From: Candidatus Nealsonbacteria bacterium CG08_land_8_20_14_0_20_36_22
GTDB lineage: Bacteria; Patescibacteriota; Minisyncoccia; Minisyncoccales; GWA2-38-27
Length of the DNA stretch: 30,231 nucleotides
Assembly: GCA_002774555.1 (NCBI GenBank)
Contig: PEYC01000017.1
Location: 1-30,231, forward strand
Reading direction: 5' to 3'
Part shown: positions 1-30,231 of the stretch, piece after piece
Numbering within the stretch: position 1 is the stretch's first letter
Layout: each line of letters starts with the position of its first letter
Program-made: the position numbers and the translations under genes
Notes under the pieces: generated by a model
What the model saw: the letters and a program-made list of their open reading frames with translations, nothing else
Databases searched by the model: none
Told to the model about the DNA's origin: nothing

Positions 1-171
1 AAGCCAAAAACCGAAGGGCAGTGGCTTTGGTATTTAGAAAGAAAAATTAACTACGACGATTGGAAAGGCCTTAAAAAAAGAATAATAAAAAAATATTTCC
101 CTAAATTAAAAAAACGGCTTGACCCAGGCAAAAGGGAAATGCTTAAAATTTATTTTAAAAAACATGTTTGA
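1..171 (+). CDS. Partial small basic protein (5' end outside window), probable partner/antitoxin of the downstream AbiEii-like nucleotidyltransferase
   Basis: Frame +1 is open from base 1 to TGA 169-171 (KPKTEGQWLWYLERKINYDDWKG...KHV*). Its end overlaps ATG 164 of the next gene. Partner role inferred from position. Confidence 0.6.
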   Translation, partial: KPKTEGQWLWYLERKINYDDWKGLKKRIIKKYFPKLKKRLDPGKREMLKIYFKKHV

Positions 172-835
172 ATTAACTCCCCTTCAAAAAAAAGTTCTTT
201 ATTTGTTTGCTAAATCTTCTTTAAAAAACAAATTTTATTGGACAGGAGGCACCCTCCTCTCATCCCGCTATTTACATCATCGCCGTTCAAACGACCTTGA
301 TTTTTTTACTGATAAACCTTTTAGCTATAATCAAGTTATTGGGTTTATTCAAAAACTTAAAAAAGAATTAAAATTGCCTCAAGTAGATGAAAAGAAAATT
401 TACGACCGGCAAGAATTTATCTTACATAATAGAGGAAAATTGAGATTAGAATTTGTTCAATACGACCATCCAAAACTAAAAACTAGAGAAAAATGGAAGG
501 GAATAATGATTGATTCTTTAGACGATATGGCCTCTAATAAACTCATGTCTTTTTTTGACCGCAACGATCCAAAAGATTTGTTTGATTTATATTTTCTTTT
601 AACTAAAAAGAAATATACAATTAAAAAATTATTGAAATTAGTTGAAAAGAAATTCGGAGTTAGTTTTGAAGAAAGCAGTGTGCTCAGCGAGACCCATAAA
701 TCAACAAAAGAGTTAGACAATTTAAAACCTCTAATTTTAGCAAAAAACCAAAAAGAAAGAAAAAGAATAATAAAAGAAATCCAAGAATATTTTTCTGATT
801 TATCTAATCAGTATTTAAAGCAAGTTTTAGACTAA
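164..835 (+). CDS. Nucleotidyltransferase, AbiEii/type IV toxin-antitoxin toxin family
   Basis: Motif GGTLLSSRYLHHRRSNDLDFF (GGT...HRxSxDxDF) and later NKLMSFFDRNDPKDLFDL. ATG 164 preferred over the TTG at 119 because it couples to the upstream stop. Confidence 0.8.
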   Translation: MFELTPLQKKVLYLFAKSSLKNKFYWTGGTLLSSRYLHHRRSNDLDFFTDKPFSYNQVIGFIQKLKKELKLPQVDEKKIYDRQEFILHNRGKLRLEFVQYDHPKLKTREKWKGIMIDSLDDMASNKLMSFFDRNDPKDLFDLYFLLTKKKYTIKKLLKLVEKKFGVSFEESSVLSETHKSTKELDNLKPLILAKNQKERKRIIKEIQEYFSDLSNQYLKQVLD

Positions 836-2404: not shown

Positions 2405-3642
2405 GGAAGCGGGAATTTTTTGCAAAGTTTTTTGACCTCTTTTCTAACCTTTAGATATGATTTAGGATTTGAAAAAACTTCATTAATCCAAAAAGCAATT
2501 TTTTTCATTTCTTTTTCTTTCATGCCTCTGGTTGTAATGGCTGGGGTACCCAAACGGATTCCCGAAGGATTAAAAGGCGGATTAGGATCAAAAGGAATAG
2601 TATTTTTGTTTATAGTAATGCCGGATTTTTCTAAAATAATTTGGGCTTCTTTGCCAGAAATTCCTTTATTTCTTAAATCAATTAAAATTAAATGATTGTC
2701 TGTACCGCCAGTAATTAAATTAAAGCCGTATTTTAAAATCTCTGAAGCTAGGGCCTTGCTGTTTTTTATTATTTGCTTTCCATATTTCTTAAAAGCTGGG
2801 CTTGAAGCTTCTTTTAAACAAACAGCAATGGCAGCAATATTGTTTTCATGGGGACCACCTTGGAGACCGGGAAAAACAGTTTTATCAATTTTTTTAGGGA
2901 GTTCTGGGTCTTTACTTAAACCCTTTTCTGTTACCATAATCATTCCGCCTCTGGGACCTCTTAAGGTCTTATGAGTTGTGGTTGTAATAATATGAACATA
3001 AGGAACTGGGCTTGGATGAACGCCAGCAATAATTAAACCAGCAATATGGGCGATATCTGCTGCCAGATAAGCGCCAATTAAATCTGCGATTTCGCCAAAT
3101 TTTTCCCAATTAAAGAAACGAGGATAAGCAGTTGCTCCAACCCAAATAAGTTTTGGTTTTACCTCTTTAGCTAATTTTTCTATTTCATTATAATTAAGCA
3201 AATTTGTCTCTTTATCAACGCCATACTGAATCGAATTATAATATTTTCCAGAAAAACTTACTTTCCAGCCGTGAGTTAAATGACCTCCGTGAGGAAGGGA
3301 CATTCCCATTACTGTATCTCCGGGCTCCAAAAGAGCAAAATAAACTGCCTGATTTGCCGGAGAACCAGAATAGGGTTGAACATTGACATAAGGCACACCA
3401 AATAATTTTTTTGCTCTTTCCTGACAAAGTGTCTCAATTTTATCGTAAAATTCCAAGCCAGCATAATATCTTTTCCCTGGATATCCCTCAGCATACTTAT
3501 CAGTTAAAACCGAACCCAAGGCTTCCCTCACAGCCGCTGAAGTATGATTTTCCGATGGAATCATCTCCAAAGTCGTCTCCTGCCTTTCTCTTTCTCTCTC
3601 AATAAGTTTTGCAATTTGCGAATCAATTTTTTTAAAATTCAT
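2401..3642 (-). CDS. glyA: Serine hydroxymethyltransferase
   Basis: IPSEN, DKYAEGYPGKRYY, TTTTHKTLRGPRGG (PLP lysine), SGIRLGTPAITTRG. Confidence 0.97.
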   Translation of the reverse strand: MNFKKIDSQIAKLIERERERQETTLEMIPSENHTSAAVREALGSVLTDKYAEGYPGKRYYAGLEFYDKIETLCQERAKKLFGVPYVNVQPYSGSPANQAVYFALLEPGDTVMGMSLPHGGHLTHGWKVSFSGKYYNSIQYGVDKETNLLNYNEIEKLAKEVKPKLIWVGATAYPRFFNWEKFGEIADLIGAYLAADIAHIAGLIIAGVHPSPVPYVHIITTTTHKTLRGPRGGMIMVTEKGLSKDPELPKKIDKTVFPGLQGGPHENNIAAIAVCLKEASSPAFKKYGKQIIKNSKALASEILKYGFNLITGGTDNHLILIDLRNKGISGKEAQIILEKSGITINKNTIPFDPNPPFNPSGIRLGTPAITTRGMKEKEMKKIAFWINEVFSNPKSYLKVRKEVKKLCKKFPLP

Positions 3643-18547: not shown

Positions 18548-19254
18548 TTACTTATTATACCATTTATATAGGACTGGGAAACTTCTTCCAGTTCTTTCCC
18601 CTGTTCTTGTTCAATTTTCAATCTTGATAAAATCCTCCAATTTTTGTCAGGGAAAAGGCGAAAAATCTTAATTGTTTCCGGCGAAATCAAAATTTTGTCT
18701 TTTGTGCTGTCATCCGAACATCTCAAACAAATTATTCCATTACTTTCCGAAGAAAAATTCATCAGGCCCGGAATTAGTTTCTCCTGGCATTTAACACAAT
18801 GATATAAATCAATCTGATATCCTAAAATCGAAAGCAGATTCCAAACGAAATAATAGTAAATAATTTCCAATTTCCAATTATTTAATTTTTCAAAAACCTC
18901 ACTCAATAAATTCCAAACCTTTTCATCTTGTTCTTGGCCGGTGATTAAATTGTCAGCCGCTTCGGCTATTTGACTGGCAATTTCTATTTTTTTTAAAGAA
19001 TTTCTTATATTTTTAAATTTTTCAATTACTATTGCCTCGGTTAAGGTTTTATGGTTTTTTCCTTGGATAAACTCAATTTCCGACAAATAAAAAAGGTCTA
19101 TCCCGGCTCTTAATTTTGATTTAATCTTACGTATTGCTTTTCCTAAAATTTTTAATTTTCCAAAGTCCTTTGTATAAACAACAAAAACCTGGTCTGCCTC
19201 CCGCAAATCTTCTTTTTTCAAAATAAAACCTTGGGTTCTATAATGAACAGCCAT
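18544..19254 (-). CDS. recO: DNA repair protein RecO
   Basis: EADQVFVVYTKDFGKL, AIRKIKSKL, zinc-finger CVKC...ICLRC. Confidence 0.9.
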   Translation of the reverse strand: MAVHYRTQGFILKKEDLREADQVFVVYTKDFGKLKILGKAIRKIKSKLRAGIDLFYLSEIEFIQGKNHKTLTEAIVIEKFKNIRNSLKKIEIASQIAEAADNLITGQEQDEKVWNLLSEVFEKLNNWKLEIIYYYFVWNLLSILGYQIDLYHCVKCQEKLIPGLMNFSSESNGIICLRCSDDSTKDKILISPETIKIFRLFPDKNWRILSRLKIEQEQGKELEEVSQSYINGIISK

Positions 19255-19278
19255 AAACCAATAATTAGGAATCAGGAA

Positions 19279-19581
19279 TTATGGTTTTACTCCGCCCCTG
19301 TCTTTCAGGTATCTGATTTCTTTATCCAACGCCATTCTTGTTTTAAAATCACTTGCCCTTTTTCTGGTTGACTGCAATCCTTGAATTGCTTTTTTGTAGT
19401 CGTCTTTGGAAATCTGGCTACCGTATTTCGATGTTGACCCGAAAACTTCTCGCCCTATTTTTTGCCGTTCGCTTTGAGAATATTTTTGACCGCCAGTTTT
19501 GGGAATTATTCCGCTGTCTTTCTTTATGGTTTCTCTTAATTTGTTGACAGGAATAGGTTTATTTTTATCAAAAATGCCCAT
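19279..19581 (-). CDS. Hypothetical basic protein (~100 aa)
   Basis: ORF filling the gap between ileS and recO; ATG 19581; no recognisable motif. Confidence 0.65.
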   Translation of the reverse strand: MGIFDKNKPIPVNKLRETIKKDSGIIPKTGGQKYSQSERQKIGREVFGSTSKYGSQISKDDYKKAIQGLQSTRKRASDFKTRMALDKEIRYLKDRGGVKP

Positions 19582-19586
19582 TGAAT

Positions 19587-22382
19587 TCAAAGTTTATTAA
19601 TACCAATTTTTAATTTTTCTCCATCGACCTTTAGCTCTTTTTCTAACCCAAACTTTGTTTTTGCCTTTCCTATTTTAAAATCTTCTGCTAATGTTTCTTT
19701 CTTGATAAAATCTTTCTTTTGGGTTAAAATTTTGTTTAACCTCTTTATGCCGTATCCCTGAACTAAAATTTTATCTTTTGGTTTTAGGCCGGCTTTTTTT
19801 CTCATCTCTTGAATGTGCCGGATAACCTCCCTAACCACCCCTTCTTCTTTAAGTCCTTTGGTAATTTTAGTGTTTAATTTAAGTTCTTTTCCAAAAACAA
19901 TTTTTTTAACATTAGCTTCTTCTTTTATCGGCTCTAATAAATCTTTTTCTAATTTATTTTTTATTTGGAGCGAGGCGAGCGGCTGGCGAACTTTTATGCC
20001 GGCTTTTGCCCTTTGAGCCAAAACCTCAGTGGTAATTCCTCTGATTTTTATCATTTTTTCTTCTAATTCTTTATTAATCAACTTCTTGTTTGGTTCAGGA
20101 TATTCTTCTAAATGAACAGATTCTTTTTCTCCGCCTAAACATTGATATAATTCTTCGGCAATAAAGGGAGTGAAGGGAGCTATAAGTTTTGATAAATTCA
20201 AAAGAACATAATAAAGAGTTGCGATTGCTTCTTCTCTATCTTTAGCCCCGGCGTGGAATCTTCTCCTGGACCTTCTAACATACCAAAGTGATAAATCATT
20301 AATAAAAAACTTTTCTATTGCCAAAGTAGCAACAGAAACATTGTATCGTTCTAAATTCCTCGTCACTTTTTCAATTAAATTATTGAGCCGCGAAACAATC
20401 CAGATGTCTAAAATATCTTTAGGTTTTGGCTTTAATACTTGCGAGGGATAATCTTTTTTATCCACATAAGTAATAAAAAAAGCGAAACTATTCCACAAAG
20501 TAAGCAATTTCCGCTTTATTTCATCAGCCGCCTTATATCCGAAATTCAAATTATACTCGGGGTTTTGCCTGGCATACATCCAACGCATCGGGTCTGCCCC
20601 AATTTTCTCAACCGCATCATCAAACCAAATAGCATTTCCTTTTGATTTATGCATTTCCTCGCCTTTTTCGTCGCGAACAGAGGCATAACCAAAAATTGTT
20701 TTTACGGGAGCCACATTCTCCAAAACCATGCTCATCACAATAATACTATAAAACCAGTTTTTAAACTGGCCGGGGAACGACTCACAAACCAAATCAGCCG
20801 GAAACCATTCCTTTGTCATTGTGGAAAAAGGAACAATGCCGGCATCCAACCAAGGATTCCCGACATCAGGAATCCGAGAGACCAACTTTCCGCATTTTGA
20901 GCATTTAATTTTAATTTCATCAATCCAGGGCCTGTGAGGAGAATTGTCATTAAACTTATCCCAACCCTTAACCGTTTTCTCTTTCAACTCTTCTTTTGAG
21001 CCGATTACTTCAAAATTACCGCAGGAGCATTCGTAAATCGGCAGAGCCAATCCCCAATAACGTTTTTTGGAAATCAGCCAGTCCTGCATATTCTTCAACC
21101 AGTCCAACTCCCTTTCCAAGCCAAAAGAAGGAATCCACTCTATTTTTTTTGCCACTACTATTAATGGTTTTCTCAATTTTTCCATTGAAATGTACCATTC
21201 ATCAACCAAACGAAAAATCAATTCTGTTTTACAGCGCCAGCAGGTTGGATAACGATGTTTGTAATCCTCAATTTTAAAAACCAAATTTTTCTTCGCCAAA
21301 TTATCAAAAATCAAATCATTTACCTGGCTAACCAACTTTCCAGTCAAAAAACCAAAACCTTTTTTATACCTACTTTCCTCGTTTGTTGGGTCAATAACAG
21401 AGAGATTAAATTCTTTACTAAGTTTAAAGTCTTCTTGTCCACAACCAGAGGCAATATGAACAATACCTGTCCCCTCTTCAGAAGTTACGTCTTTCCATAA
21501 AATAACTCTATGTTCTGTTTTTTGAAGTTCATCAAACATCCCTTGATAAACCAAGCCCTTTAATTCTTTACCAGGAAACTCTTTTAATATTTTTCCTTCC
21601 GCAATTAAATTAGCTTTTTCTTTCAAAATAATAAAAATATCTCTATTTTTATCCTGAACCTCAGCATAAATTAATTCTGGATGAACAGCTAAAGCCACAT
21701 TGGCTGGCAAAGTCCAGGGCGTGGTCGTCCAGACAAGAAAAAAAGTATTCTTTTTATTAATTACTGGTAATTTTACAAAAATTGCTTTGTGAGTTATTTC
21801 TTTATATTCCTCTGTTAAAATTTCATGCTGAGATATCGCTGTGCCGCAGCGCGGACACCAAGGCACAACGTCTCTTCCTTTATAAAGCAGTCCTCTTTGC
21901 CGGCATTTTTTAAGAAAGCCCCAAATAGCATAATTATTCTCATCAGACATTGTGTAGTAAGAATTATCCCAATCCATCCATTGGCCAAGCCGAATTGATT
22001 GTTCTGTCTGGATTTTTGAATATTTTTTCACCCTTTCTTTACATTTTTCAACAAACTTGTCAATTCCGTATTTCTCAATATCTTTTTTATTTTTAAAACC
22101 TAATTCCTTTTCAACTTCAACTTCAACATGAAGCCCTTGGCAATCAAAGCCATTTTGAAATCTTAGCTCACGCCCCTGCATTGCTTTATACCTCTGGAAG
22201 ATATCTTTATAAGTTCTCCCCCAAGCGTGGTGAACGCCCATAGGATTATTAGCAGTTATTGGCCCATCTAAAAACGACCAATGTTCCTTACCCTGGTTTT
22301 TTTTTCTCAACTTCTCAAAAATTTTCTTCTCTTGCCAAAACCTTAGTATTTTCTCTTCTATTTTTGGAAAATCTAAACTCAT
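19587..22382 (-). CDS. ileS: Isoleucyl-tRNA synthetase, type 2
   Basis: DGPITAN, GFDCQGLHVE, WTTTPWTLPAN, DWLISKKRYWG, WYVRRSRRRF, no C-terminal zinc finger, KVRQPL (type 2 C-terminus). Confidence 0.95.
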   Translation of the reverse strand: MSLDFPKIEEKILRFWQEKKIFEKLRKKNQGKEHWSFLDGPITANNPMGVHHAWGRTYKDIFQRYKAMQGRELRFQNGFDCQGLHVEVEVEKELGFKNKKDIEKYGIDKFVEKCKERVKKYSKIQTEQSIRLGQWMDWDNSYYTMSDENNYAIWGFLKKCRQRGLLYKGRDVVPWCPRCGTAISQHEILTEEYKEITHKAIFVKLPVINKKNTFFLVWTTTPWTLPANVALAVHPELIYAEVQDKNRDIFIILKEKANLIAEGKILKEFPGKELKGLVYQGMFDELQKTEHRVILWKDVTSEEGTGIVHIASGCGQEDFKLSKEFNLSVIDPTNEESRYKKGFGFLTGKLVSQVNDLIFDNLAKKNLVFKIEDYKHRYPTCWRCKTELIFRLVDEWYISMEKLRKPLIVVAKKIEWIPSFGLERELDWLKNMQDWLISKKRYWGLALPIYECSCGNFEVIGSKEELKEKTVKGWDKFNDNSPHRPWIDEIKIKCSKCGKLVSRIPDVGNPWLDAGIVPFSTMTKEWFPADLVCESFPGQFKNWFYSIIVMSMVLENVAPVKTIFGYASVRDEKGEEMHKSKGNAIWFDDAVEKIGADPMRWMYARQNPEYNLNFGYKAADEIKRKLLTLWNSFAFFITYVDKKDYPSQVLKPKPKDILDIWIVSRLNNLIEKVTRNLERYNVSVATLAIEKFFINDLSLWYVRRSRRRFHAGAKDREEAIATLYYVLLNLSKLIAPFTPFIAEELYQCLGGEKESVHLEEYPEPNKKLINKELEEKMIKIRGITTEVLAQRAKAGIKVRQPLASLQIKNKLEKDLLEPIKEEANVKKIVFGKELKLNTKITKGLKEEGVVREVIRHIQEMRKKAGLKPKDKILVQGYGIKRLNKILTQKKDFIKKETLAEDFKIGKAKTKFGLEKELKVDGEKLKIGINKL

Positions 22383-22393
22383 ATTTTTCTGAT

Positions 22394-22993
22394 TTATTTA
22401 ACCTCTAAAAATTCGCTTAGACCGGGATAAAATCCTTTAACAGAGGAAAAAGTATCATCAAACTGGTTTTTTTCTAAAAGCTCTTTTTCGTTTAATCCTT
22501 TTAAGAATCCATTCAAAAGCCAAATCGGGTCACCGTGGCTGATAATTATAATTGTTTTATTTTTATATTTTTTTTCAATATCTTTTATAAAATCTATTGT
22601 CCTTTTTTTGACATCTCGCCAACTTTCGCCTTTAGGAGGCCGCTTAAAGAATTTTTGTTTTTTATTAGTGAAAAACTTTCTGTATTCATCTATTTTTCCT
22701 CCATAAAAAATCCCAAAATTTATATCCCGAAGCCGTTTATCAAAAATAATTTTTAACCCAAGTATTTTAGCAACAATTTCCGCTGTTTGGCAAGTTCTCA
22801 AAAAATCTGAAGAATAGATTAAATCAACATTTTTAGCTTTAAACTTTTCTACTACAGATTTTACTTGCTCTTTTCCTTTTTTCGTTAAACCAACCAAATT
22901 TACTGATGTCCAAGGATATAAAAGTCCTTTCTTCTTTGTCTGATAAATTGTTTCTCCGTGTCTTAAGAGAATATATTTATTTTTCAATTTCAT
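22394..22993 (-). CDS. Histidine phosphatase (phosphoglycerate mutase-like) family protein
   Basis: RHGET, SSDFLRTCQTA, SHGDPI. Confidence 0.88.
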   Translation of the reverse strand: MKLKNKYILLRHGETIYQTKKKGLLYPWTSVNLVGLTKKGKEQVKSVVEKFKAKNVDLIYSSDFLRTCQTAEIVAKILGLKIIFDKRLRDINFGIFYGGKIDEYRKFFTNKKQKFFKRPPKGESWRDVKKRTIDFIKDIEKKYKNKTIIIISHGDPIWLLNGFLKGLNEKELLEKNQFDDTFSSVKGFYPGLSEFLEVK

Positions 22994-23034
22994 TTTTATA
23001 GCTTATTTTAACTAAAAAAATTGATTTTTTCAAC

Positions 23035-24030
23035 TTATTCACTTATAAATTGTAAGGAAATCTTTCTTTTCAATTTTTGAGTATTCCCATGTCTTAGTAG
23101 CCCAAAATATGAATTGAGTGTCTCTTTTGTTTTGTTTGTTTTTATTCTTTTAAATATTCTTCTCTTTGTAGCGTTGCGGAGTACTCGATGGTCTGGGAAA
23201 TTAACCCAACCTAAAAAATCAACCCCAGAAAATAAGGTTTTTATAAATATTTTATCGGGATGTATTAACAGTTTAAGATTATTGTTTAAAAAAGATTTTA
23301 TTTCAGGCACCAAACTTTCTATCCATTTTTTATTATGATTTAAAATAACAAAATCATCTGAATATCTGATATAATATTTTTCTTTAAGTTTATGTTTTAC
23401 AAATTGGTCAAATTCATTCATATAAATATTTACCAAAAGCTGTGATGTTAAATTACCAAGGGGCAGACCAACCCCGGGTTTTATAGAATAAAAACTATCA
23501 ATAATCTCTCCTAAAAGCCATAGAATATTTTTATCCGGAATATATTTACTTAAAATATTTTTTAATATTTTATGATTTATGCTCGCAAAAAATTTCCTAA
23601 TATCGCATTTCAGAACCCAACAGGTTTTTGTATTATTTTTGCTGACTACATAATAGAAATCTATAAACCTTTTTATTGCTTTATACATTCCCTTTTCTAA
23701 CCGACACGAATAAGAGTCGGAAATAAATATTCTCTCAAAAAACGGATACAATATGCGATATACCGCATGATGGACTAACCTGTCGCGAATGCTCGCCTTA
23801 TGGATATTTCTCGGTTTTGGGTCACAGATATTAAATGCTTGATAGCCACCGTGTTTATAGGTATGATTAACTAAATCTTGTTGCAAAGACAGAATATTAT
23901 CCATTAAATTGAAAGAAAACTTCTGCACATCTTTCTTGTTTCTTTTTCCTTTAATAAATTCCTGCCAAGCCAAAAGCAAATTATTAACGCTTACTATATC
24001 CTCAAATTTATGGGTCAATTGAATCTTCAT
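23035..24030 (-). CDS. DGR reverse transcriptase
   Basis: KPRNIHKASIRDRLVHHA, KCDIRKFF, GLPLGNLTSQ, YIRYSDDFV, VDFLGW; no maturase/endonuclease tail. ATG 24030 with AAAGGA upstream; an in-frame TTG at 24093 is an alternative start. Confidence 0.93.
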   Translation of the reverse strand: MKIQLTHKFEDIVSVNNLLLAWQEFIKGKRNKKDVQKFSFNLMDNILSLQQDLVNHTYKHGGYQAFNICDPKPRNIHKASIRDRLVHHAVYRILYPFFERIFISDSYSCRLEKGMYKAIKRFIDFYYVVSKNNTKTCWVLKCDIRKFFASINHKILKNILSKYIPDKNILWLLGEIIDSFYSIKPGVGLPLGNLTSQLLVNIYMNEFDQFVKHKLKEKYYIRYSDDFVILNHNKKWIESLVPEIKSFLNNNLKLLIHPDKIFIKTLFSGVDFLGWVNFPDHRVLRNATKRRIFKRIKTNKTKETLNSYFGLLRHGNTQKLKRKISLQFISE

Positions 24031-24046
24031 AATTGTTCCTTTAATA

Positions 24047-24055
24047 CCCCCCCCC
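24047..24055. repeat. C9/G9 homopolymer between the divergent avd and RT starts
   Basis: TTAATA-CCCCCCCCC-AACC read directly from the sequence. Confidence 0.9.
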
Positions 24056-24073
24056 AACCAGTCAAATTTAAGT

Positions 24074-24397
24074 TTGGTGCAAAAATTAGTCAACGCCTAC
24101 AAGCTTTGGCATAAGTTTTTGCCTCATTTCCCAAAAACATCTCGTTATACTTTAGGGTCAAAAATTGACTCGCTTTTTATAGAAACCACTGAATCTGTAA
24201 TCAAAGCGTTTCATTCAGGCAAGGGAGAAAAATTGATTTATTTGATTCAGGCATCTGTAAAGCTTGATTTATTAAAATTCTTTTTGCAAATTGCTTGGGA
24301 AATAAAAGCGCTGGATAATAAAAAATACATTCGCCTTTCTGAAAAACTGGACGAAATCGGCAGGATGCTCGACGGCTGGTTAAAATCTCTAAAATGA
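24074..24397 (+). CDS. avd: Avd-like accessory variability determinant (four-helix bundle)
   Basis: Basic ~107-aa helical protein: FPKTSRYTLGSKID, ASVKLDLLKFFLQIAWEIK, EIGRMLDGW; adjacent to DGR RT and TR. Start codon uncertain (TTG 24074/GTG 24077). Confidence 0.85.
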   Translation: MVQKLVNAYKLWHKFLPHFPKTSRYTLGSKIDSLFIETTESVIKAFHSGKGEKLIYLIQASVKLDLLKFFLQIAWEIKALDNKKYIRLSEKLDEIGRMLDGWLKSLK

Positions 24398-24508
24398 ATT
24401 TTATCATACATAATTACTTCGCTCGGTCGGAAAAGAAAAGTAAATTTTTCTTTTCCTTTCTCGCTTGTAATTATAAACCCGCCTGATTAAGGCGGGAAAC
24501 AAAGAGAT

Positions 24509-24644
24509 TTGCGCACGGCAGCGAAACGCCAGTTCTCATTCCAATCATTCTCGAACCAATTGAGGTTCAGGTTGCGCTCATCGCTATTCCAGTTCAGATA
24601 CGGCACGTGGCGGTTGCTATCCGGATTCTGCCAGACAGAACCAA
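24509..24644 (-). repeat. DGR template repeat (TR), 136 nt
   Basis: Ungapped match to 25030-25165; 33 adenines on the minus strand; 10 AAY codons in the target frame. Confidence 0.96.
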
Positions 24645-24928
24645 TTGTACAAAATATCATCTATGCCACCACCCCTTGATTGCTCTCGGGGTTGAATCTT
24701 ATTCGGAATCCTCGCCCCGTAGTAAGCTTTGCTTTACTATTGGGGTTAATTCCTTAATATCTTGCACCAAGTATCTTTGTTTTTTGGAAATTAGAAACGA
24801 CCCTAATATGAAGCGTACCCCATATTATTCTGCGTTGTTCTAATCCCGGATCTCAATCGCTCACAGCCGTAACCGTGAGCATATCAATCTACTATCCAAA
24901 ATTATATTATCATATTCTGATCAAAAAT

Positions 24929-24964
24929 AAAATCCTTTGCGAAAGGTTTTTCGCAAAGGATTTT
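24929..24964. other. Perfect 16-bp hairpin downstream of VR (homing hairpin and/or terminator)
   Basis: AAAATCCTTTGCGAAA-GGTT-TTTCGCAAAGGATTTT. Confidence 0.75.
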
Positions 24965-25025
24965 TGTTGTTCGGACCAAGAATCCAAAAATCCAAGAAGG
25001 ATTAAGAACCCAAAAGTCCAAAAAC

Positions 25026-25574
25026 TTACTTGCGCACGGCAGCGAAACGCCAGTCCCCACCCCAACCACCCTCGAACCAAAGGAGGTGCAGGAGGCGCTC
25101 ATCGCTAAACCAGTTCAGATACGGCACGAGGCGGCTGCTAACCGGATCCTGCCAGACAGAACCAAGAGCAACAATCGGAAATTGCTTTTGCAGTCCAGGA
25201 TAAGCCGCGCCGAGAGCCAACAATTCCTCTATTCTAGCGGGACGGAAGCCCTGCTTTTCCATTTCGGCAATGGCGTCGCCAGAAGAAATGTTCTTTCCGA
25301 AACAGAAAAGAACGATTTCCTCTTCTTGCTTACCGCTCCCAGCAATTGGAAAATGTTCCTGAGTGATATCGTTGTTCACCCAGCCGTAGTTGCCAGCTTT
25401 GATCATTTGGGCAAGGGTTTGACTATAGTCAACTATAACCATGGATGTTTGTCGTTGATTTTCCATCTCTTTGCCCACCAGTTCGCCTGATAGCAACTTA
25501 TTGACGCCATTCATTCCGCCCAATTTGTTAACAACTGCTTCAATCTGCCCCAATGTTAATTCTCCGTACTTCAT
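25026..25574 (-). CDS. DGR target protein with C-terminal variable region (probable CLec-like fold)
   Basis: VR encodes the C-terminal GSVWQDPVSSRLVPYLNWFSDERLLHLLWFEGGWGGDWRFAAVRK; start ATG 25574 (or 25583); fold inferred from DGR knowledge. Confidence 0.88.
   Translation of the reverse strand: MKYGELTLGQIEAVVNKLGGMNGVNKLLSGELVGKEMENQRQTSMVIVDYSQTLAQMIKAGNYGWVNNDITQEHFPIAGSGKQEEEIVLFCFGKNISSGDAIAEMEKQGFRPARIEELLALGAAYPGLQKQFPIVALGSVWQDPVSSRLVPYLNWFSDERLLHLLWFEGGWGGDWRFAAVRK
25030..25165 (-). repeat. DGR variable repeat (VR)
   Basis: 118/136 identical to TR; all 18 differences are at TR adenines (9 A>G, 6 A>T, 3 A>C). Confidence 0.96.
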
Positions 25575-25682
25575 AATACACATCCTTTCCCGGCTTTTTG
25601 CCGAAAAAATTCCCTCTGCCCGAGGTTTTAGGGGTCGCTAAATGCGACAATTTGTTTTATAAAAGAACACTACTCTGTCCTA

Positions 25683-25712
25683 ATTATACCATATCATCTT
25701 GCTACTTGTCAA
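25683..25712 (-). promoter_or_regulatory. Consensus sigma70 promoter upstream of the DGR target gene
   Basis: Minus strand TTGACA-N18-TATAAT with extended TGn. Confidence 0.7.
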
Positions 25713-25722
25713 GCTCTTACAT

Positions 25723-26833
25723 CCTGAATTCAACCTGCAAGCGCAACACTTGGCATATTAATGCTAATGTTAAAACGATTCAATTTTTTTGAAAACATTT
25801 CTAAGGGTGTCTTCCAGCCGAGCCGTTTTCTGGGCCGGTGGTTAAGGTTGTTCTCAACTTCTTGTATTTCCTCGTCAGATATCATAGTAAAATCTGTTTT
25901 CTTTGGAAATAAATCTCTGATTAAGCCATTGGTATTCTCGTTGGTCCCTCTTTCCCAGGAATGATAAGCATGAGCAAAGAAACATTTAAACCCTGTTCTC
26001 TTTTCGAGCTCTTCCCATTTTTGATTTTCAAAGCCGTTATCAAAGGTAGCTGTTTGTTTCAGTCTTTGGGGTAGATTTTTAACCCTGCTTTCTATTGCCA
26101 GAACGGTGGCTTCGCTGCTTTTATCTCTTAATTTGGTGATAAGCACTAATCCTGTTTTTCTCTCAACAAACGTGTTAATTCCAGGTTTATGATCTTTTGA
26201 TTCAACTGTGTCTGACTCCCAGTCGCCTATACGAATTCTATCACTAACAATCATAGGGCGTAAATCAATAGATAATCCTTTAACAGTTGAAGATGTTCTC
26301 TGACAGCGTCTCATTCCTTTATGGGTTCTACGTTTCTTCTTTCTTCTTAAGTAGGGCCTTAAATCCTCATAACCAGGCTTCAACAATCCCCAGCCATTTC
26401 TGTGTATTTGATGATATATGAATCGGTATATTGCTTCGTGAGATATGGAATAACCGGGCAAGTCTTCTTTAATCCTGCCTGCTATCTGCTCTGGCGATGT
26501 TCTCTTCTTTAATTCTCGTATCACATAAGCTCTGATAGTGTCATTCTTTAATCTTTCTGTTCTGCCTCTTAAGCCTCTCTTTTTTAAGGCTCTTTCATGA
26601 GCTGCTCTGGGAATATATCTTCGTCTCCCAAGAGAATCCAGATTCCTCTTAATTTCTCTGGACACAGAAGAAGGTGAACGACCTAATGCCGCGGCAATGG
26701 TTCTGATTGAGGTTTTTTGCCACAACATCTCTTGTATTCTCTCCCTTTCCTCAACCGTAAAATGTGTATATTTCATATCACTTTGATAATACATTATTTT
26801 ATCAAAGTGTTGCACTTACTTGTTGAACTAACG
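25723..26833 (-). mobile_element. IS30-family insertion sequence, 1111 bp, 3-bp target duplication (CAT)
   Basis: Imperfect terminal IRs CCTGAATTCAACCTGCAAGCGCAACACTT / CGTTAGTTCAACAAGTAAGTGCAACACTT (core 19/23); CAT at 25720-22 and 26834-36. Confidence 0.9.
25730..26776 (-). CDS. IS30-family DDE transposase
   Basis: HTH IAAALGRSPSSVSREIKRN, SPEQIAGR, ISHEAIY, GDWESDT, TFDNG, WERGTNENTNGLIR; stop codon lies within the terminal IR. Confidence 0.95.
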   Translation of the reverse strand: MKYTHFTVEERERIQEMLWQKTSIRTIAAALGRSPSSVSREIKRNLDSLGRRRYIPRAAHERALKKRGLRGRTERLKNDTIRAYVIRELKKRTSPEQIAGRIKEDLPGYSISHEAIYRFIYHQIHRNGWGLLKPGYEDLRPYLRRKKKRRTHKGMRRCQRTSSTVKGLSIDLRPMIVSDRIRIGDWESDTVESKDHKPGINTFVERKTGLVLITKLRDKSSEATVLAIESRVKNLPQRLKQTATFDNGFENQKWEELEKRTGFKCFFAHAYHSWERGTNENTNGLIRDLFPKKTDFTMISDEEIQEVENNLNHRPRKRLGWKTPLEMFSKKLNRFNISINMPSVALAG

Positions 26834-28345
26834 CATCTTCTCCGGGGCTGAAATCCCCAGTAAATCTAAAGTGTTTTTGAGAACAATTTTTGTGGCTGAT
26901 ATTAAAGCAAACCGGGCTTTACTTAATTCTTTATCTTCGGAAATCACCCGGCAGTTTTCGTAAAATTGGTGAAAAGCGTCAGCTAACTGAACTACATACT
27001 GAGGAATTCTCTGAACTTGAAAATCTTTAGCAGTATCTTCAATAATTTCCGGAAACCTAATCAATTGTTTAATCAAATTCAACTCGCTCGGATGATTTAA
27101 TAATTGAAAATTGAAAATTGAAAATTGAAAATTATTTTGCGCTTTGCGCAAAATGCTTGATACCCTCGCATAAGCATATTGGACATAATAAACCGGATTT
27201 TTCTCTGACTGTTCTTTTGCCAAATCCATATCAAAATTCAAATGACTATCGGGACTTCTCGTTAAAAAGAAAAATCTAGCAACATCTAAACCAACTTCAT
27301 CTATTAATTCTTCGAGCCCCACATAATTACCGGTTCTTTTTGACATTTTAAATTCCTGGCCCTCTTTAAAAAGCTTAACTAACTGCATTAAAACAACAGT
27401 TAATTGTTCTTTTTTATATCCTAATGCCTCTGCCGCTGCTTTTAATCTGGCGATATAACCATAATGGTCAGCTCCCCAAAAGAAAATCAGCTTATCAAAA
27501 CCGCGCTCAAATTTGTTTTTCAAATAAGCAATATCCGAAGCAAAATAGGTTTTCTCGCCATCTGCTTTCACCAACACTCTATCTTTATCATCTCTAAATT
27601 CAGTTGATTTAAACCACAAGGCGCCGTCTTTTTCATAAGCTAATTTCTTTTTTTTCAGCCAATTTAAAATTTTATCAACTTCTTTGTTTTTATACAGATT
27701 TTTTTCCGAAAACCAAACATCAAATTTAATTTTTAGCTTTTTAGTGATAAATTTTTGATTTTCTTTTTGAATTTGTAGGGCTGTTCTCTTTTCTCCTTTG
27801 TAAAACCCTTTTTTCAGAGCTTCTATTTGTTTACCCCGATCATTAATATAGTATTCACGGCATATCTTATATCCTGCTTTTTTAAAAACATTTGCCAAAA
27901 CATCTCCGCAAAATCCTCCCCGGCCGTTCCCCAAAGTTAAAGGACCTGTGGGATTGGCCGAAATAAACTCTATATTTACCCTGTTAAATCCGCCTTTGGC
28001 GGTGTCCCGCTGAAAGCGGGACAATTTAACAGGGTGAATTTTTTGCCCAAATTTTTCCTTTTCTTTTAAAATCTCCCCAACCTGTTTTTGTAAATATTCT
28101 TTTGAAATAAAAAAGTTAATAAACCCCGGTTTAACAATCTCTATTTTTTCGATAATACTGCTTTTTATTCTTGATTTTATCATTTCTGCTATTCTCATCG
28201 ACTCCTTTCCCGTCACCATTGCAACATTCGTCGCACAATCCCCATACTCTTTCCCCCTCGGCTGTTCAACCAAAATCTCGGAAACCTTGTACCCAAGCTC
28301 TTTAATCGCTTTTTCTATTAATTTCCCGATCTCTTCTCTAACCAT
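26828..28345 (-). CDS. argS: Arginyl-tRNA synthetase
   Basis: EFISANPTGP, TYFASDIAY, WGADHYGY, KMSKRTG, NPVYYVQYAYAR, GISAPEKM. Confidence 0.95.
   Translation of the reverse strand: MVREEIGKLIEKAIKELGYKVSEILVEQPRGKEYGDCATNVAMVTGKESMRIAEMIKSRIKSSIIEKIEIVKPGFINFFISKEYLQKQVGEILKEKEKFGQKIHPVKLSRFQRDTAKGGFNRVNIEFISANPTGPLTLGNGRGGFCGDVLANVFKKAGYKICREYYINDRGKQIEALKKGFYKGEKRTALQIQKENQKFITKKLKIKFDVWFSEKNLYKNKEVDKILNWLKKKKLAYEKDGALWFKSTEFRDDKDRVLVKADGEKTYFASDIAYLKNKFERGFDKLIFFWGADHYGYIARLKAAAEALGYKKEQLTVVLMQLVKLFKEGQEFKMSKRTGNYVGLEELIDEVGLDVARFFFLTRSPDSHLNFDMDLAKEQSEKNPVYYVQYAYARVSSILRKAQNNFQFSIFNFQLLNHPSELNLIKQLIRFPEIIEDTAKDFQVQRIPQYVVQLADAFHQFYENCRVISEDKELSKARFALISATKIVLKNTLDLLGISAPEKMR
27104..27133. 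repeat. Heptamer microsatellite (TTGAAAA)4TT inside argS
   Basis: Direct count; encodes NFQFSIFNFQ. Confidence 0.85.
27978..28035. repeat. Composite inverted repeat, family B, in frame in argS
   Basis: ACCCTGTTAAAT/ATTTAACAGGGT enclosing CCGCC-TTT-GGCGG and TGTCCCGCT-GAA-AGCGGGACA. Confidence 0.8.
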
Positions 28346-28386
28346 TATTTCCAGTTTACCTTATTTTTTGCTAAAATAAAAGAATT

Positions 28387-28836
28387 ATGAAGGTTCTAAC
28401 TGAAAATAAAAAGGCCTATTTTGATTATCAAATCCTGGAAAAGTTTGATGCAGGATTGGTTTTACTTGGAACTGAGGTAAAGTCAATAAAATTGGGTAGG
28501 ATAAATTTGGCAGGTTCTTATGTTGTATTTAAGGGCGAGGAATTATATCTTATTGGCGCTAAAATTCCTCCTTATCAGCCCAAAAACGCGCCCCCGGATT
28601 ACGAACCGGAACGTTCTCGCAAGCTTCTTCTAAATAAAGCCGAGATAAAAAAATTAATCGGTAAAACCAAACAAAAAGGTTTGACTCTAATACCCTTGAA
28701 GGTTTATACTAAACATGCTAAAATAAAGCTTGAATTCGGGATAGGCCGCGGTAAAAAGAAGATTGATAAAAGAGAGTCAATTAAAAAACGGGAGGCAGAA
28801 CGGGAAATCCAAAGAGAGTTAAAATCACGGGGATGA
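28387..28836 (+). CDS. smpB: SsrA-binding protein
   Basis: NKKAYFDY, AGLVLLGTEVKSIK, RSRKLLL, GKKKIDKR. Confidence 0.97.
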   Translation: MKVLTENKKAYFDYQILEKFDAGLVLLGTEVKSIKLGRINLAGSYVVFKGEELYLIGAKIPPYQPKNAPPDYEPERSRKLLLNKAEIKKLIGKTKQKGLTLIPLKVYTKHAKIKLEFGIGRGKKKIDKRESIKKREAEREIQRELKSRG

Positions 28837-29182
28837 AAAGTTTTGATAGAGGTCTTCGTCAAAATAAAGCAGGCCGAGATCTCCGACTCTCGAAAATAAT
28901 CGGAAAAGAAAAATAAGTGCCAACTTATTTAACAAACAACCTGTTTTAGCATACGCTTAAAGCAGCATCGGAAATAACGATTCTCGATAGTTAAATTCCG
29001 GTGTCATAATATCGAGATAGATAATTCTTCTCGCCCAAAAAGAATTATTAAAAATAATTGGGATTAGAAAATTAAAATTTTGTTTGTTTTTTATCTAATT
29101 TTCGAAATACAAAACAAAATAAGCCTGTAGTATTATTTTGGCGAAACTTCTAGACGGGGCTTCAACGCCCCCATCTCCACCA
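28829..29182 (+). ncRNA. ssrA: tmRNA; tag ANLFNKQPVLAYA (28919-28960)
   Basis: 5' GGGGATG pairs with 3' CATCTCC-ACCA including the G3-U70 pair; resume context ATAAGT-GCC; lies next to smpB. Confidence 0.93.
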
Positions 29183-29202
29183 ATTAAAATTATTTTTCAA
29201 AA

Positions 29203-29721
29203 ATTTTGTACAAACGGACTTTCATAAACAATCAAATAAGAGCGAGGGAAGTAAGAGTAATTGATGAGACTGGAAAACAGTTGGGAATTTTATTTAAAGA
29301 AAAAGCTATCCAAATAGCCAGGGAGCGAGGTTTTGACTTAATCCAGGTTACTGAAAAGGTGGAGCCGCCGGTTTGCAAATTATTGGATTACGGAAAATAT
29401 TTATATAATCTCCAAAAAAAAGAAAAAGCGGCCAAACATCACAAAACTGGCGAGCTTAAGGGAATAAGATTAACTTTTGGGATTTCAGAGCATGATTTAG
29501 AAACAAGAGTGAACCAATCAGAAAAATTTTTAAAAAAAGGAAATAAGGTTAGAATAGAAATGGCATTAAAAGGAAGACAAAGGTCAAAAGCACTAGAAGG
29601 TTTTGCTAAAGAAAAATTTAAAAAATTCCTGGAGACATTAGAAAAATTAGTCCCAATAAAAATTGAAAGGGACTTAAAAAGAGAGTCAAGAGGATTAATA
29701 ATGATTATATCTAAAAGATAA
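29203..29721 (+). CDS. infC: Translation initiation factor IF-3 (non-AUG start, ATT 29203 or TTG 29206)
   Basis: INNQIRAREVRVI, DLIQV...PPVCKLLDYGKYLY, FLKKGNKV. Confidence 0.93.
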   Translation: MLYKRTFINNQIRAREVRVIDETGKQLGILFKEKAIQIARERGFDLIQVTEKVEPPVCKLLDYGKYLYNLQKKEKAAKHHKTGELKGIRLTFGISEHDLETRVNQSEKFLKKGNKVRIEMALKGRQRSKALEGFAKEKFKKFLETLEKLVPIKIERDLKRESRGLIMIISKR

Positions 29722-29808
29722 TAATGCCAATCTACGAATGATATGCCAATAACGCGAATAATTTGCGTCATTGGTATAAAATTCGCATGATATTGGCGTT
29801 ATATTTTT

Positions 29809-29991
29809 ATGAAAACAAGAAAATCAATTAAAAAACGTTTTAAAATTACTAAAACCGGTAAAGTTCTGAGAAGAGCAACCGGACAAGACCATTATCAGGC
29901 AAAAAAATCAGGGAAGAAAAAAAGAAAAATGCGAAAATGGATAGAGGTCTCAAAACCAGAAGCTAAAAAAATAAAGCAACTGCTTCACTAA
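29809..29991 (+). CDS. rpmI: 50S ribosomal protein L35
   Basis: MKTRKSIKKRFKITKTGK; position between infC and rplT. Confidence 0.92.
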   Translation: MKTRKSIKKRFKITKTGKVLRRATGQDHYQAKKSGKKKRKMRKWIEVSKPEAKKIKQLLH

Positions 29992-29992
29992 T

Positions 29993-30231
29993 ATGGTTAG
30001 AGTTAAACGAGGAAAAACAGCTCACAGACGGAGAAAAAATTTGTTGAAACACACAAAGGGTTTTCGCTGGGGAAGAAAATCAAAATATCGCCTCGCCAAA
30101 GAGGCCTTGCTTCATGCCTGGAAATATGCTTACCGAGACAGAAGAACCAAAAAAAGAGAGTTCAGAAAACTTTGGCAAATTCAAATCAATGCTGCCTGCC
30201 GAGAACAAGGTTTATCTTACAGCCGTTTTAT
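29993..30231 (+). CDS. rplT: 50S ribosomal protein L20 (runs off the window)
   Basis: MVRVKRG...KGFRWGRK...AYRDRRTKKREFRKLWQIQINAA. Confidence 0.95.
   Translation, partial: MVRVKRGKTAHRRRKNLLKHTKGFRWGRKSKYRLAKEALLHAWKYAYRDRRTKKREFRKLWQIQINAACREQGLSYSRF

Follow-up and report, generated by a model that had tools for sequence, protein, structure and literature searches.

The window analysed here is a stretch of 30,231 nucleotides, positions 1-30,231 of the forward strand of contig PEYC01000017.1 (assembly GCA_002774555.1), from Candidatus Nealsonbacteria bacterium CG08_land_8_20_14_0_20_36_22, an ultra-small groundwater bacterium of the Candidate Phyla Radiation (CPR; Patescibacteria). Between argS and a His-phosphatase-ileS unit, the window carries a diversity-generating retroelement (DGR), a system by which the tip of a single protein is rewritten. 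Its parts follow one another in the order target gene with a variable repeat (VR), 385-nt spacer, template repeat (TR), inverted avd gene and reverse transcriptase (RT) gene. Searches of the whole genome covered 510 kb in 64 contigs (85% complete, 35.5% GC).

The TR (24509-24644, minus strand) is 136 nt long and contains 33 adenines and 10 AAY codons, and the VR (25030-25165, minus strand) forms the last 45 codons of the target gene. The two repeats aligned without gaps over 136 nt with 18 mismatches (nine A>G, six A>T and three A>C), so that 18 of the 33 adenines of the TR and none of its other bases were affected. Given the share of A in the TR (33/136), the chance of all 18 mismatches falling on this base is about (0.243)^18 = 8.5e-12. 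At the protein level, 13 residues were altered, and nine of the ten AAY (Asn) codons were affected. The homology stopped sharply on both sides (24509/25030 and 24644/25165). At the 3' end, the last ~25 nt of both repeats were GC-rich, identical and free of A changes, and complete divergence set in right after them. No further VR or target of this TR was found besides the VR described here in the 510-kb, 85% complete genome.

The RT gene (23035-24030, minus strand) encodes 331 aa from ATG 24030 and matched Pfam RVT_1 (E 5e-21). This ATG, with AAGGA located 6-11 nt before it, is most likely the start. Gene callers also use TTG 24057 (340 aa), and TTG 24093 was set aside in favour of ATG 24030 with its AAGGA. 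The protein contains the motifs VGLPLGNLTSQ and catalytic YSDD and has neither a maturase nor an endonuclease domain. Its best match in the PDB was the RT of the Bordetella phage (bRT; 8ub7, E 4e-38), compared with 7e-19 for group II intron/retron-type RTs. The top NCBIfam match was a group II RT/maturase because NCBIfam holds no DGR RT model; the score against this model (TIGR04416) was 138.5 bits with a cut-off of 300, and that against retron_St85_RT was 56 bits with a cut-off of 235. In Rfam searches, no group II intron was matched in 22900-26900 and no retron msr in the searched cassette region. The avd gene (24010-24397) lies on the plus strand, opposite to the TR, RT and target, and its canonical 107-aa frame starts at TTG 24074 (24074-24397). 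It matched Pfam bAvd (E 8e-18) and NCBIfam DivGenRetAVD (E 4e-19, model positions 3-104).

A first-pass annotation of this DNA had described a complete chromosomal DGR with a gapless TR/VR pair (18 mismatches, all at A, 13 altered residues and 9 of 10 AAY codons changed), a GLPLGNLTSQ motif in the RT and an adjacent Avd-like gene. The repeat comparison was reproduced exactly, base by base. The RT motif was present and was joined by YSDD and by bRT as the nearest structure, the Avd assignment was borne out by both profiles, and the target described below adds a C-type-lectin-like fold for the variable domain.

To place the element among its relatives, 91 related loci were compared: 10 from the same family or order, 80 species-representative loci from many Patescibacteria classes (RT 57-71% identical) and the window itself. 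All 10 RT homologues from the same family or order were accompanied by a divergent avd at a distance of 12-67 nt from the RT start; the TR/VR layout was the same in nine. Across the whole set, a divergent avd adjoined the RT in 84 of 91 loci, and an A-biased TR/VR pair was present in the same arrangement in 66 of these 84, with a VR-TR offset of mostly 430-510 nt. The architecture TR-(avd)-RT, designated B3, makes up 90% of the DGR set that Wu et al. 2018 (PMC5758913) report for CPR, and the window element, with its avd on the reverse strand, has this B3 order. Roux et al. 2021 (PMC8144416) assigned CPR DGRs to a cellular clade 2, in which targets without transmembrane or other recognised domains are typical. 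Because its gene order is B3 and recurs in 66 of 84 related loci, the element is an ordinary member of a described group. We consider a bona fide, complete DGR of the ordinary CPR B3 type, including the mechanism and gating proposed below, the best explanation of the locus, with a probability of roughly 0.88. The inverted avd had also been considered as an unusual feature, which was ruled out, B3 being the CPR norm. On a single contig from the same order (G025:C4; loci L031, L032 and L033), three B3-type DGRs were found within 65 kb, each with its own TR/VR pair and with different junction repeats (C10, C7 and (CT)8).

The target gene (25026-25583, minus strand) encodes 185 aa, or probably 182 aa from ATG 25574; this ATG is most likely the start, as it has an AAGGA ribosome-binding site and the homologues begin with MKYGEL. 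A sigma-70 promoter for the gene (25683-25712, minus strand) consists of TTGACA, an 18-nt spacing and TG-TATAAT, matching 12 of 12 consensus positions. A search for signal peptides and for Pfam or NCBIfam matches in the target was negative. Its family comprises proteins of ~200 aa, nearly all from Patescibacteria metagenomes (358 matches in a word-indexed search and 5128 clusters at 50% identity in an exhaustive one). When 30 members were aligned, the C-terminal part showed conserved scaffold residues separated by variable positions. The AlphaFold (AF2) model built from this alignment had a predicted local distance difference test (pLDDT) score of 87.6 and showed a short helical N-terminus followed by a C-type-lectin-like domain (CTLD; residues 43-185), with the VR in the C-terminal strands. 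All leading fold matches (Foldseek, VIA) were CTLD/FGE proteins, among them Bd2740-C (8oks, Z 8.1, the best), TvpA (2y3c, Z 6.0) and Mtd (1yu0, Z 5.9). As modelled, the variable domain of the target is a C-type-lectin-like fold; the scores were moderate and the agreement was unanimous.

The surroundings of the cassette are of a housekeeping type. The other genes in the 30 kb are folD, glyA, a tsaC-like gene, iorAB, leuS, accA, tatD and metG, together with genes for a transporter, an M16 peptidase and a class II synthetase, recO, ileS, the His-phosphatase gene, argS, smpB and infC; no phage genes were found among the annotated genes across the 30-kb window. A genome from another genus of the same family (G018) also has a DGR at the argS | His-phosphatase-ileS site (locus L034, G018:C5 3934-6835). 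Its RT is 53% identical to the window RT, a divergence similar to that of the genes beside it, and it has an unrelated target protein of 308 aa. The occupation of the same site in another genus argues for long-term host ownership, and the sequence context supports a resident host-chromosomal DGR at a housekeeping site. The earlier view of a host-owned cassette away from phage genes thus held, and the comparison of argS-ileS synteny in relatives that had been proposed alongside it yielded the G018 element between argS and His-phosphatase-ileS. This site looks like a long-term DGR home with exchangeable targets. A gene for an AbiEii-type nucleotidyltransferase toxin (type IV toxin-antitoxin) was observed at the left end of the window (119-835), as the sole defence-like gene amid the housekeeping genes.

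A second VR allele was found on a single 4.3-kb metagenome contig from ENA (L004, 1-4334), which was compared with positions 24550-29100 of the window. Over the 1174 nt shared, there were 27 differences, of which 22 were in the VR and 21 of those 22 at TR-A positions. Outside the VR, 5 of 1038 positions differed (99.5% identical), and the first 95 nt of the TR, present on the contig, were identical, as was the target promoter. The L004 VR differed from the TR by 23 changes, 22 of them at A. Because the VR of L004 differs and its TR segment is identical, the VR has been rewritten from this very TR since the near-identical cassettes separated. Read from these sequences, mutagenic retrohoming has occurred on an evolutionary scale. 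The flanking genes of L004 were more diverged: smpB and argS were 62-78% identical to those of the window (in 100-nt bins), with 86% in the last ~100 nt of argS, and from there on the identity was 99-100% except in the VR. A cassette of 99-100% identity beside adjoining genes of 62-78% therefore implies a recent lateral replacement between fairly distant relatives at a syntenic site. The switch in identity lies within the last 100-150 nt of argS.

Closer relatives of the window were recovered from other groundwater samples. Eight contigs compared base by base had no substitution in 23035-25723, and their flanks contained patches with 1-9% divergence. Contigs from sister samples were mosaic relative to window positions 19000-30231, being identical to the window along most of their length, with 4-9% divergent blocks in ileS and recO (L008), in infC and beyond (L007) or in an intergenic region (L009). 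These mosaics suggest either that co-occurring strains recombine often or that the assembler switched between strains. In runs X8, X10 and X11, the Logan contigs broke inside the VR at a depth of 2-7x.

The RT and avd genes start divergently, and a simple repeat of nine cytosines (C9; 24047-24055) lies between their starts. Among all G/C runs of the 510-kb genome it is the longest, and 0.15 runs of at least 9 would be expected there. Among otherwise identical assemblies, counted via exact-protein look-ups of the 340-aa and 331-aa RT calls, seven samples carried the same C9 tract as the window, three had C8, one had C10 and one had C8 with an extra T; the length of the tract was the sole polymorphism within the cassette among these assemblies. 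In the last of these (L122; JGI 3300025021, equivalent to window 24047-24076), the extra T lies in a TTT run 20 nt downstream of C8, so that a C9-like frame is restored after the second indel. This double indel could reflect a frame change at a second site or, alternatively, an error in the homopolymer.

The length of the tract sets the frame of avd relative to a conserved start codon. The conserved avd ATG (24010) lies 20 nt inside the RT coding region, where it is the reverse complement of the codon for His7, a residue conserved in the RT of relatives. Relative to this ATG, avd is out of frame by +1 in the C9 state and in frame in the C8 state, where it would encode a 128-aa protein. Among related loci with a tract of <=6, avd was in frame with the ATG at -20 in 10 of 14, and among those with a tract of >=7 the frames scattered (12 in frame, 26 at +1 and 14 at +2). 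Across the 84 loci with a divergent avd the tract was conserved, and G/C runs of >=7 were several-hundred-fold enriched at this position, with 68 in 6.3 kb of RT-avd junctions of the related loci versus 8 in the other 496 kb. The frame state set by tract length would probably keep the cassette mostly 'off' in this population. The intact components noted in the first-pass annotation accordingly need one qualification: the RT, TR and other parts are intact, and avd is one base off its conserved ATG in the C9 state. At seven junctions (L033, L045, L056, L081, L087, L118 and L074), (CT)n, read as SLSLSL, or (GA)n was observed in place of poly-C at the same position. A single site at the RT-avd junction of related DGRs is thus taken by slippery repeats of more than one kind. 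A literature search found no paper that ties DGRs to such a simple-repeat tract.

The spacer between VR and TR was conserved across the 66 loci in both sequence and length (mostly 300-390 nt) and contains several candidate signals, given here for the minus strand unless stated otherwise. Directly downstream of the VR, and absent after the TR, lies an array of degenerate ~8-nt repeats (YTTKG; 24975-25029). Such arrays followed the VR at a conserved position in most of the 66 related loci, with 4-7 repeats that are CCAAAAAT-like on the plus strand and a TTGG spacing with a mode of 8 nt; they may mark the recipient DNA for homing of the cDNA. A 16-bp inverted repeat (24929-24964), 66 nt downstream of the VR and terminator-like on both strands, may be the target gene's terminator, a counterpart of the hairpin that follows the initiation of mutagenic homing (IMH) sequence, or both. 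Just after this putative target terminator, an extended -10-like box (TGnTAnnAT; 24904-24912) was found, and the consensus of the 66 spacers at this point is a T-run followed by tg.TA.AaT. The box is likely to be the promoter of the template RNA.

Downstream of this box, a structured RNA domain is predicted 5' of the TR (24647-24880; alignment A3 of 65 loci). RNAalifold predicted 38 pairs for the 65 loci, and 36 of the 38 had pair-keeping changes on both sides. The domain comprises hairpin 1 (24880-24859), hairpin 2 (24827-24804) and P3 (24767-24756 with 24658-24647), a long-range helix enclosing both P4 (24753-24705) and P5 (24693-24671). P3 ends ~3 nt before the TR in the window and ~10 nt before it in relatives. 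Covariation also indicated a duplex that brackets the TR, between an A-rich strand (24782-24774) and a U-rich strand (24505-24497) directly 3' of the TR. Its compensatory changes include CAAAG/CTTTG here and TGAAG/CTTCA, TACAG/CTGTA and TAACA/TGTTA at other loci. The region 3' of the TR (24478-24505) consists of the U-rich strand, a 7-bp GC stem-loop (24496-24478) and then TTTATAATT, a terminator-like match. Handa et al. (bioRxiv 10.1101/2023.10.23.563531) describe both a duplex bracketing the TR and a stem-loop close to its 3' side in the Bordetella element and predict them in further phyla, CPR among them. By analogy, the stem-loop here is likely to be an Avd-binding stem-loop and/or the end of the template RNA. 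The distance from the TR end to the stop codon of the convergent avd had a median of 16 nt in relatives, compared with a TR-avd gap of 111 nt in the window. Given this short gap in relatives, the large protein-binding scaffold therefore seems to lie 5', not 3', of the TR. No Rfam family matched the spacer/TR region at E<=1.

These observations can be combined into a working mechanism. A template RNA of ~420 nt would be transcribed from its own extended -10 promoter at ~24904-24912 and would consist of the folded 5' domain (24880-24647), the TR, the U-rich strand pairing with the upstream A-rich strand, and the terminal stem-loop. RT and Avd would bind this RNA and copy the TR into cDNA, with misincorporation opposite adenines, and the cDNA would then replace the VR, the recipient being marked by the GC-rich 3' end common to both repeats together with VR-specific sequence downstream. 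Meanwhile, the poly-C tract that separates the divergently oriented starts of RT and avd would slip in length. The C9 state, found in this genome and in most samples, would uncouple avd from its conserved ATG and leave low or no Avd, and C8 would restore the 128-aa Avd. Mutagenesis might thus be on in a subpopulation only, with C9 cells keeping one VR and C8 cells diversifying, which would fit the single VR consensus across samples. A more far-reaching version, in which poly-C is a stochastic, heritable on/off switch of hypermutation and, together with the scaffold 5' of the TR, makes CPR DGRs a mechanistically distinct, self-regulated variant of the Bordetella paradigm, is put forward tentatively, as we rate its chances slightly below even. 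In the literature searched, neither a junction-repeat switch nor a protein-binding scaffold 5' of the TR was found for DGRs.

Several points weigh against this account. At least 21 contigs, which come from about a dozen groundwater samples and include C8 alleles, carry exactly this target protein and VR. No evidence of present-day VR heterogeneity was found in the assembled Logan contigs, of which one from run X1 spans TR to VR unchanged. L004 is one short contig and might be an assembly chimera, and the tract lengths derive from short-read assemblies. Moreover, the 107-aa frame initiated at TTG/GTG already holds the complete Avd domain, so Avd would not necessarily be abolished in the C9 state. 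Since the tract is also part of the 5' leader of the RT gene, it may act on RT or on promoter spacing instead. Finally, the priming site of the cDNA was not located; duplex energies, calculated for each unpaired 5'-domain segment with cognate and with non-cognate TR 3' ends, gave no signal. The suggestion in the first-pass annotation that the DGR may still be active is therefore upheld in part: two VR alleles derived from one TR place activity on an evolutionary scale, and the VR consensus is a single one in about a dozen samples.

The cassette is adjoined on its target side by an IS30-family insertion sequence (25724-26833, minus strand; NCBIfam transpos_IS30, E 6e-76), which lies outside the DGR, between argS and the target and 11 bp upstream of the -35 box of the target promoter. 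It was inserted exactly between the last sense codon of argS (ATG) and the TAA stop, and the old TAA remains at 25717-25719. IS30 supplies CGT-TAG, and ArgRS therefore gains one Arg. L004 has no IS30 and retains a clean empty site (3150-3175), and the copy number of IS30 in the 510-kb genome is one.

The features that oppose continued activity could be explained by a frozen or domesticated DGR, that is, one that was once active and is now silent, with a fixed VR and parts that persist by drift or for another role. Such a state would account for a 2.7-kb cassette that is invariant across about a dozen samples despite 1-9% divergence in its flanks, and for an avd that is off-frame from its conserved ATG in most assemblies. 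However, the RT open reading frame and its catalytic motifs, the TR, the AAY design, the RNA helices and the promoters are all intact with zero substitutions; in-frame C8 alleles coexist with C9; and L004 pairs a second VR allele with the same TR. Rare variants would also be hidden by a contig consensus. Considering both sides, we regard a frozen DGR as unlikely. A clearly lower standing is given to a mobile DGR, either as a phage or prophage remnant or as cargo of IS30. IS30 abuts the cassette, and the 99-100% identity of the L004 cassette beside argS and smpB of 62-78% implies a recent lateral exchange. Nevertheless, this exchange looks like a homologous replacement at a resident locus, the 30 kb contain no phage genes, and IS30 is single-copy here and absent from the clean site in L004. 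IS30 as the deliverer of the cassette was ruled out on this ground, since L004 has the same junction without it. The DGR at the same site in another genus, whose RT and neighbouring genes are diverged to a similar extent, and the reported cellular nature of CPR clade-2 DGRs (PMC8144416) point in the same direction and make a mobile origin highly improbable.

An ordinary duplication, in which the TR is a decayed copy of the 3' end of the target and the RT an unrelated group II intron or retron enzyme, has in its favour the top NCBIfam match of the RT, a group II RT/maturase. This match reached only 138 bits against a cut-off of 300, the RT has no maturase or endonuclease domain, and bRT is by far its nearest solved relative. 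Taken together with 18 of 18 mismatches on A and the recurrence of the pattern in 66 related loci, these data refute this explanation, to which we attach virtually no weight. A complete and ordinary CPR DGR of the B3 type thus remains the preferred reading.

As a DGR, the element is nothing new in kind, CPR being already known to be rich in chromosomal DGRs with the same gene order and small, domain-less targets. Its value lies in being a well-sampled natural case, with one clonal cassette, two VR alleles for one TR, C8, C9 and C10 alleles of the tract and a relative free of IS30. Any relation of the avd frame to VR diversification in this case would bear on how a DGR is kept in check by its cell. 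The family of the target is very large and has neither a Pfam model nor a known ligand.

Compared with known systems, the element resembles the cellular CPR/DPANN DGRs (B3/clade 2) most closely. They have in common the phylum, the groundwater habitat, the chromosomal location, the inverted avd between TR and RT, and one adjacent target with a C-terminal VR and without a signal peptide, transmembrane segment or known domain. The differences are local only, namely the argS/ileS locus, the IS30 neighbour, the 111-nt TR-avd gap and the particular target family. Among proteins of solved structure, TvpA (2y3c), Mtd (1yu0), the C-terminal domain of Legionella Lcl (8q4e) and the FGE/PvdO/EgtB fold aligned to residues 43-185 of the target model with Z 5.7-6.5. 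The target differs from these solved CTLD proteins in its low identity (9-14%), its much smaller domain (~140 aa) and the lack of a lipoprotein or secretion signal and of a Pfam match.

The poly-C tract has its closest likeness in the simple-sequence contingency loci of Campylobacter, Neisseria and Haemophilus, whose poly-G/C tracts lie within genes or promoters. As in those loci, a long G/C run in an AT-rich genome occupies a gene's 5' end within a divergent promoter region, varies in length between otherwise identical genomes and sets the reading frame. Unlike those, the tract described here would gate a mutator accessory gene, not a surface structure. With the DGR of Bordetella phage BPP-1 (mtd-VR, avd, TR, brt; 8ub7 series), the window element shares the RT clade, Avd, A-specific differences between TR and VR, an AAY-rich TR, a VR at the C-terminus of a CTLD, a GC-rich common 3' end, a duplex that brackets the TR and, close to the TR on its 3' side, a stem-loop. 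In contrast to BPP-1, it is cellular and not phage-borne, its avd is inverted and stands head-to-head with the RT, and a simple repeat occupies the avd/RT junction. The lineage of the window further differs from BPP-1 in having almost no non-coding spacer 3' of the TR and, instead, a folded domain of ~230 nt 5' of the TR, probably preceded by a promoter of its own for the template RNA.

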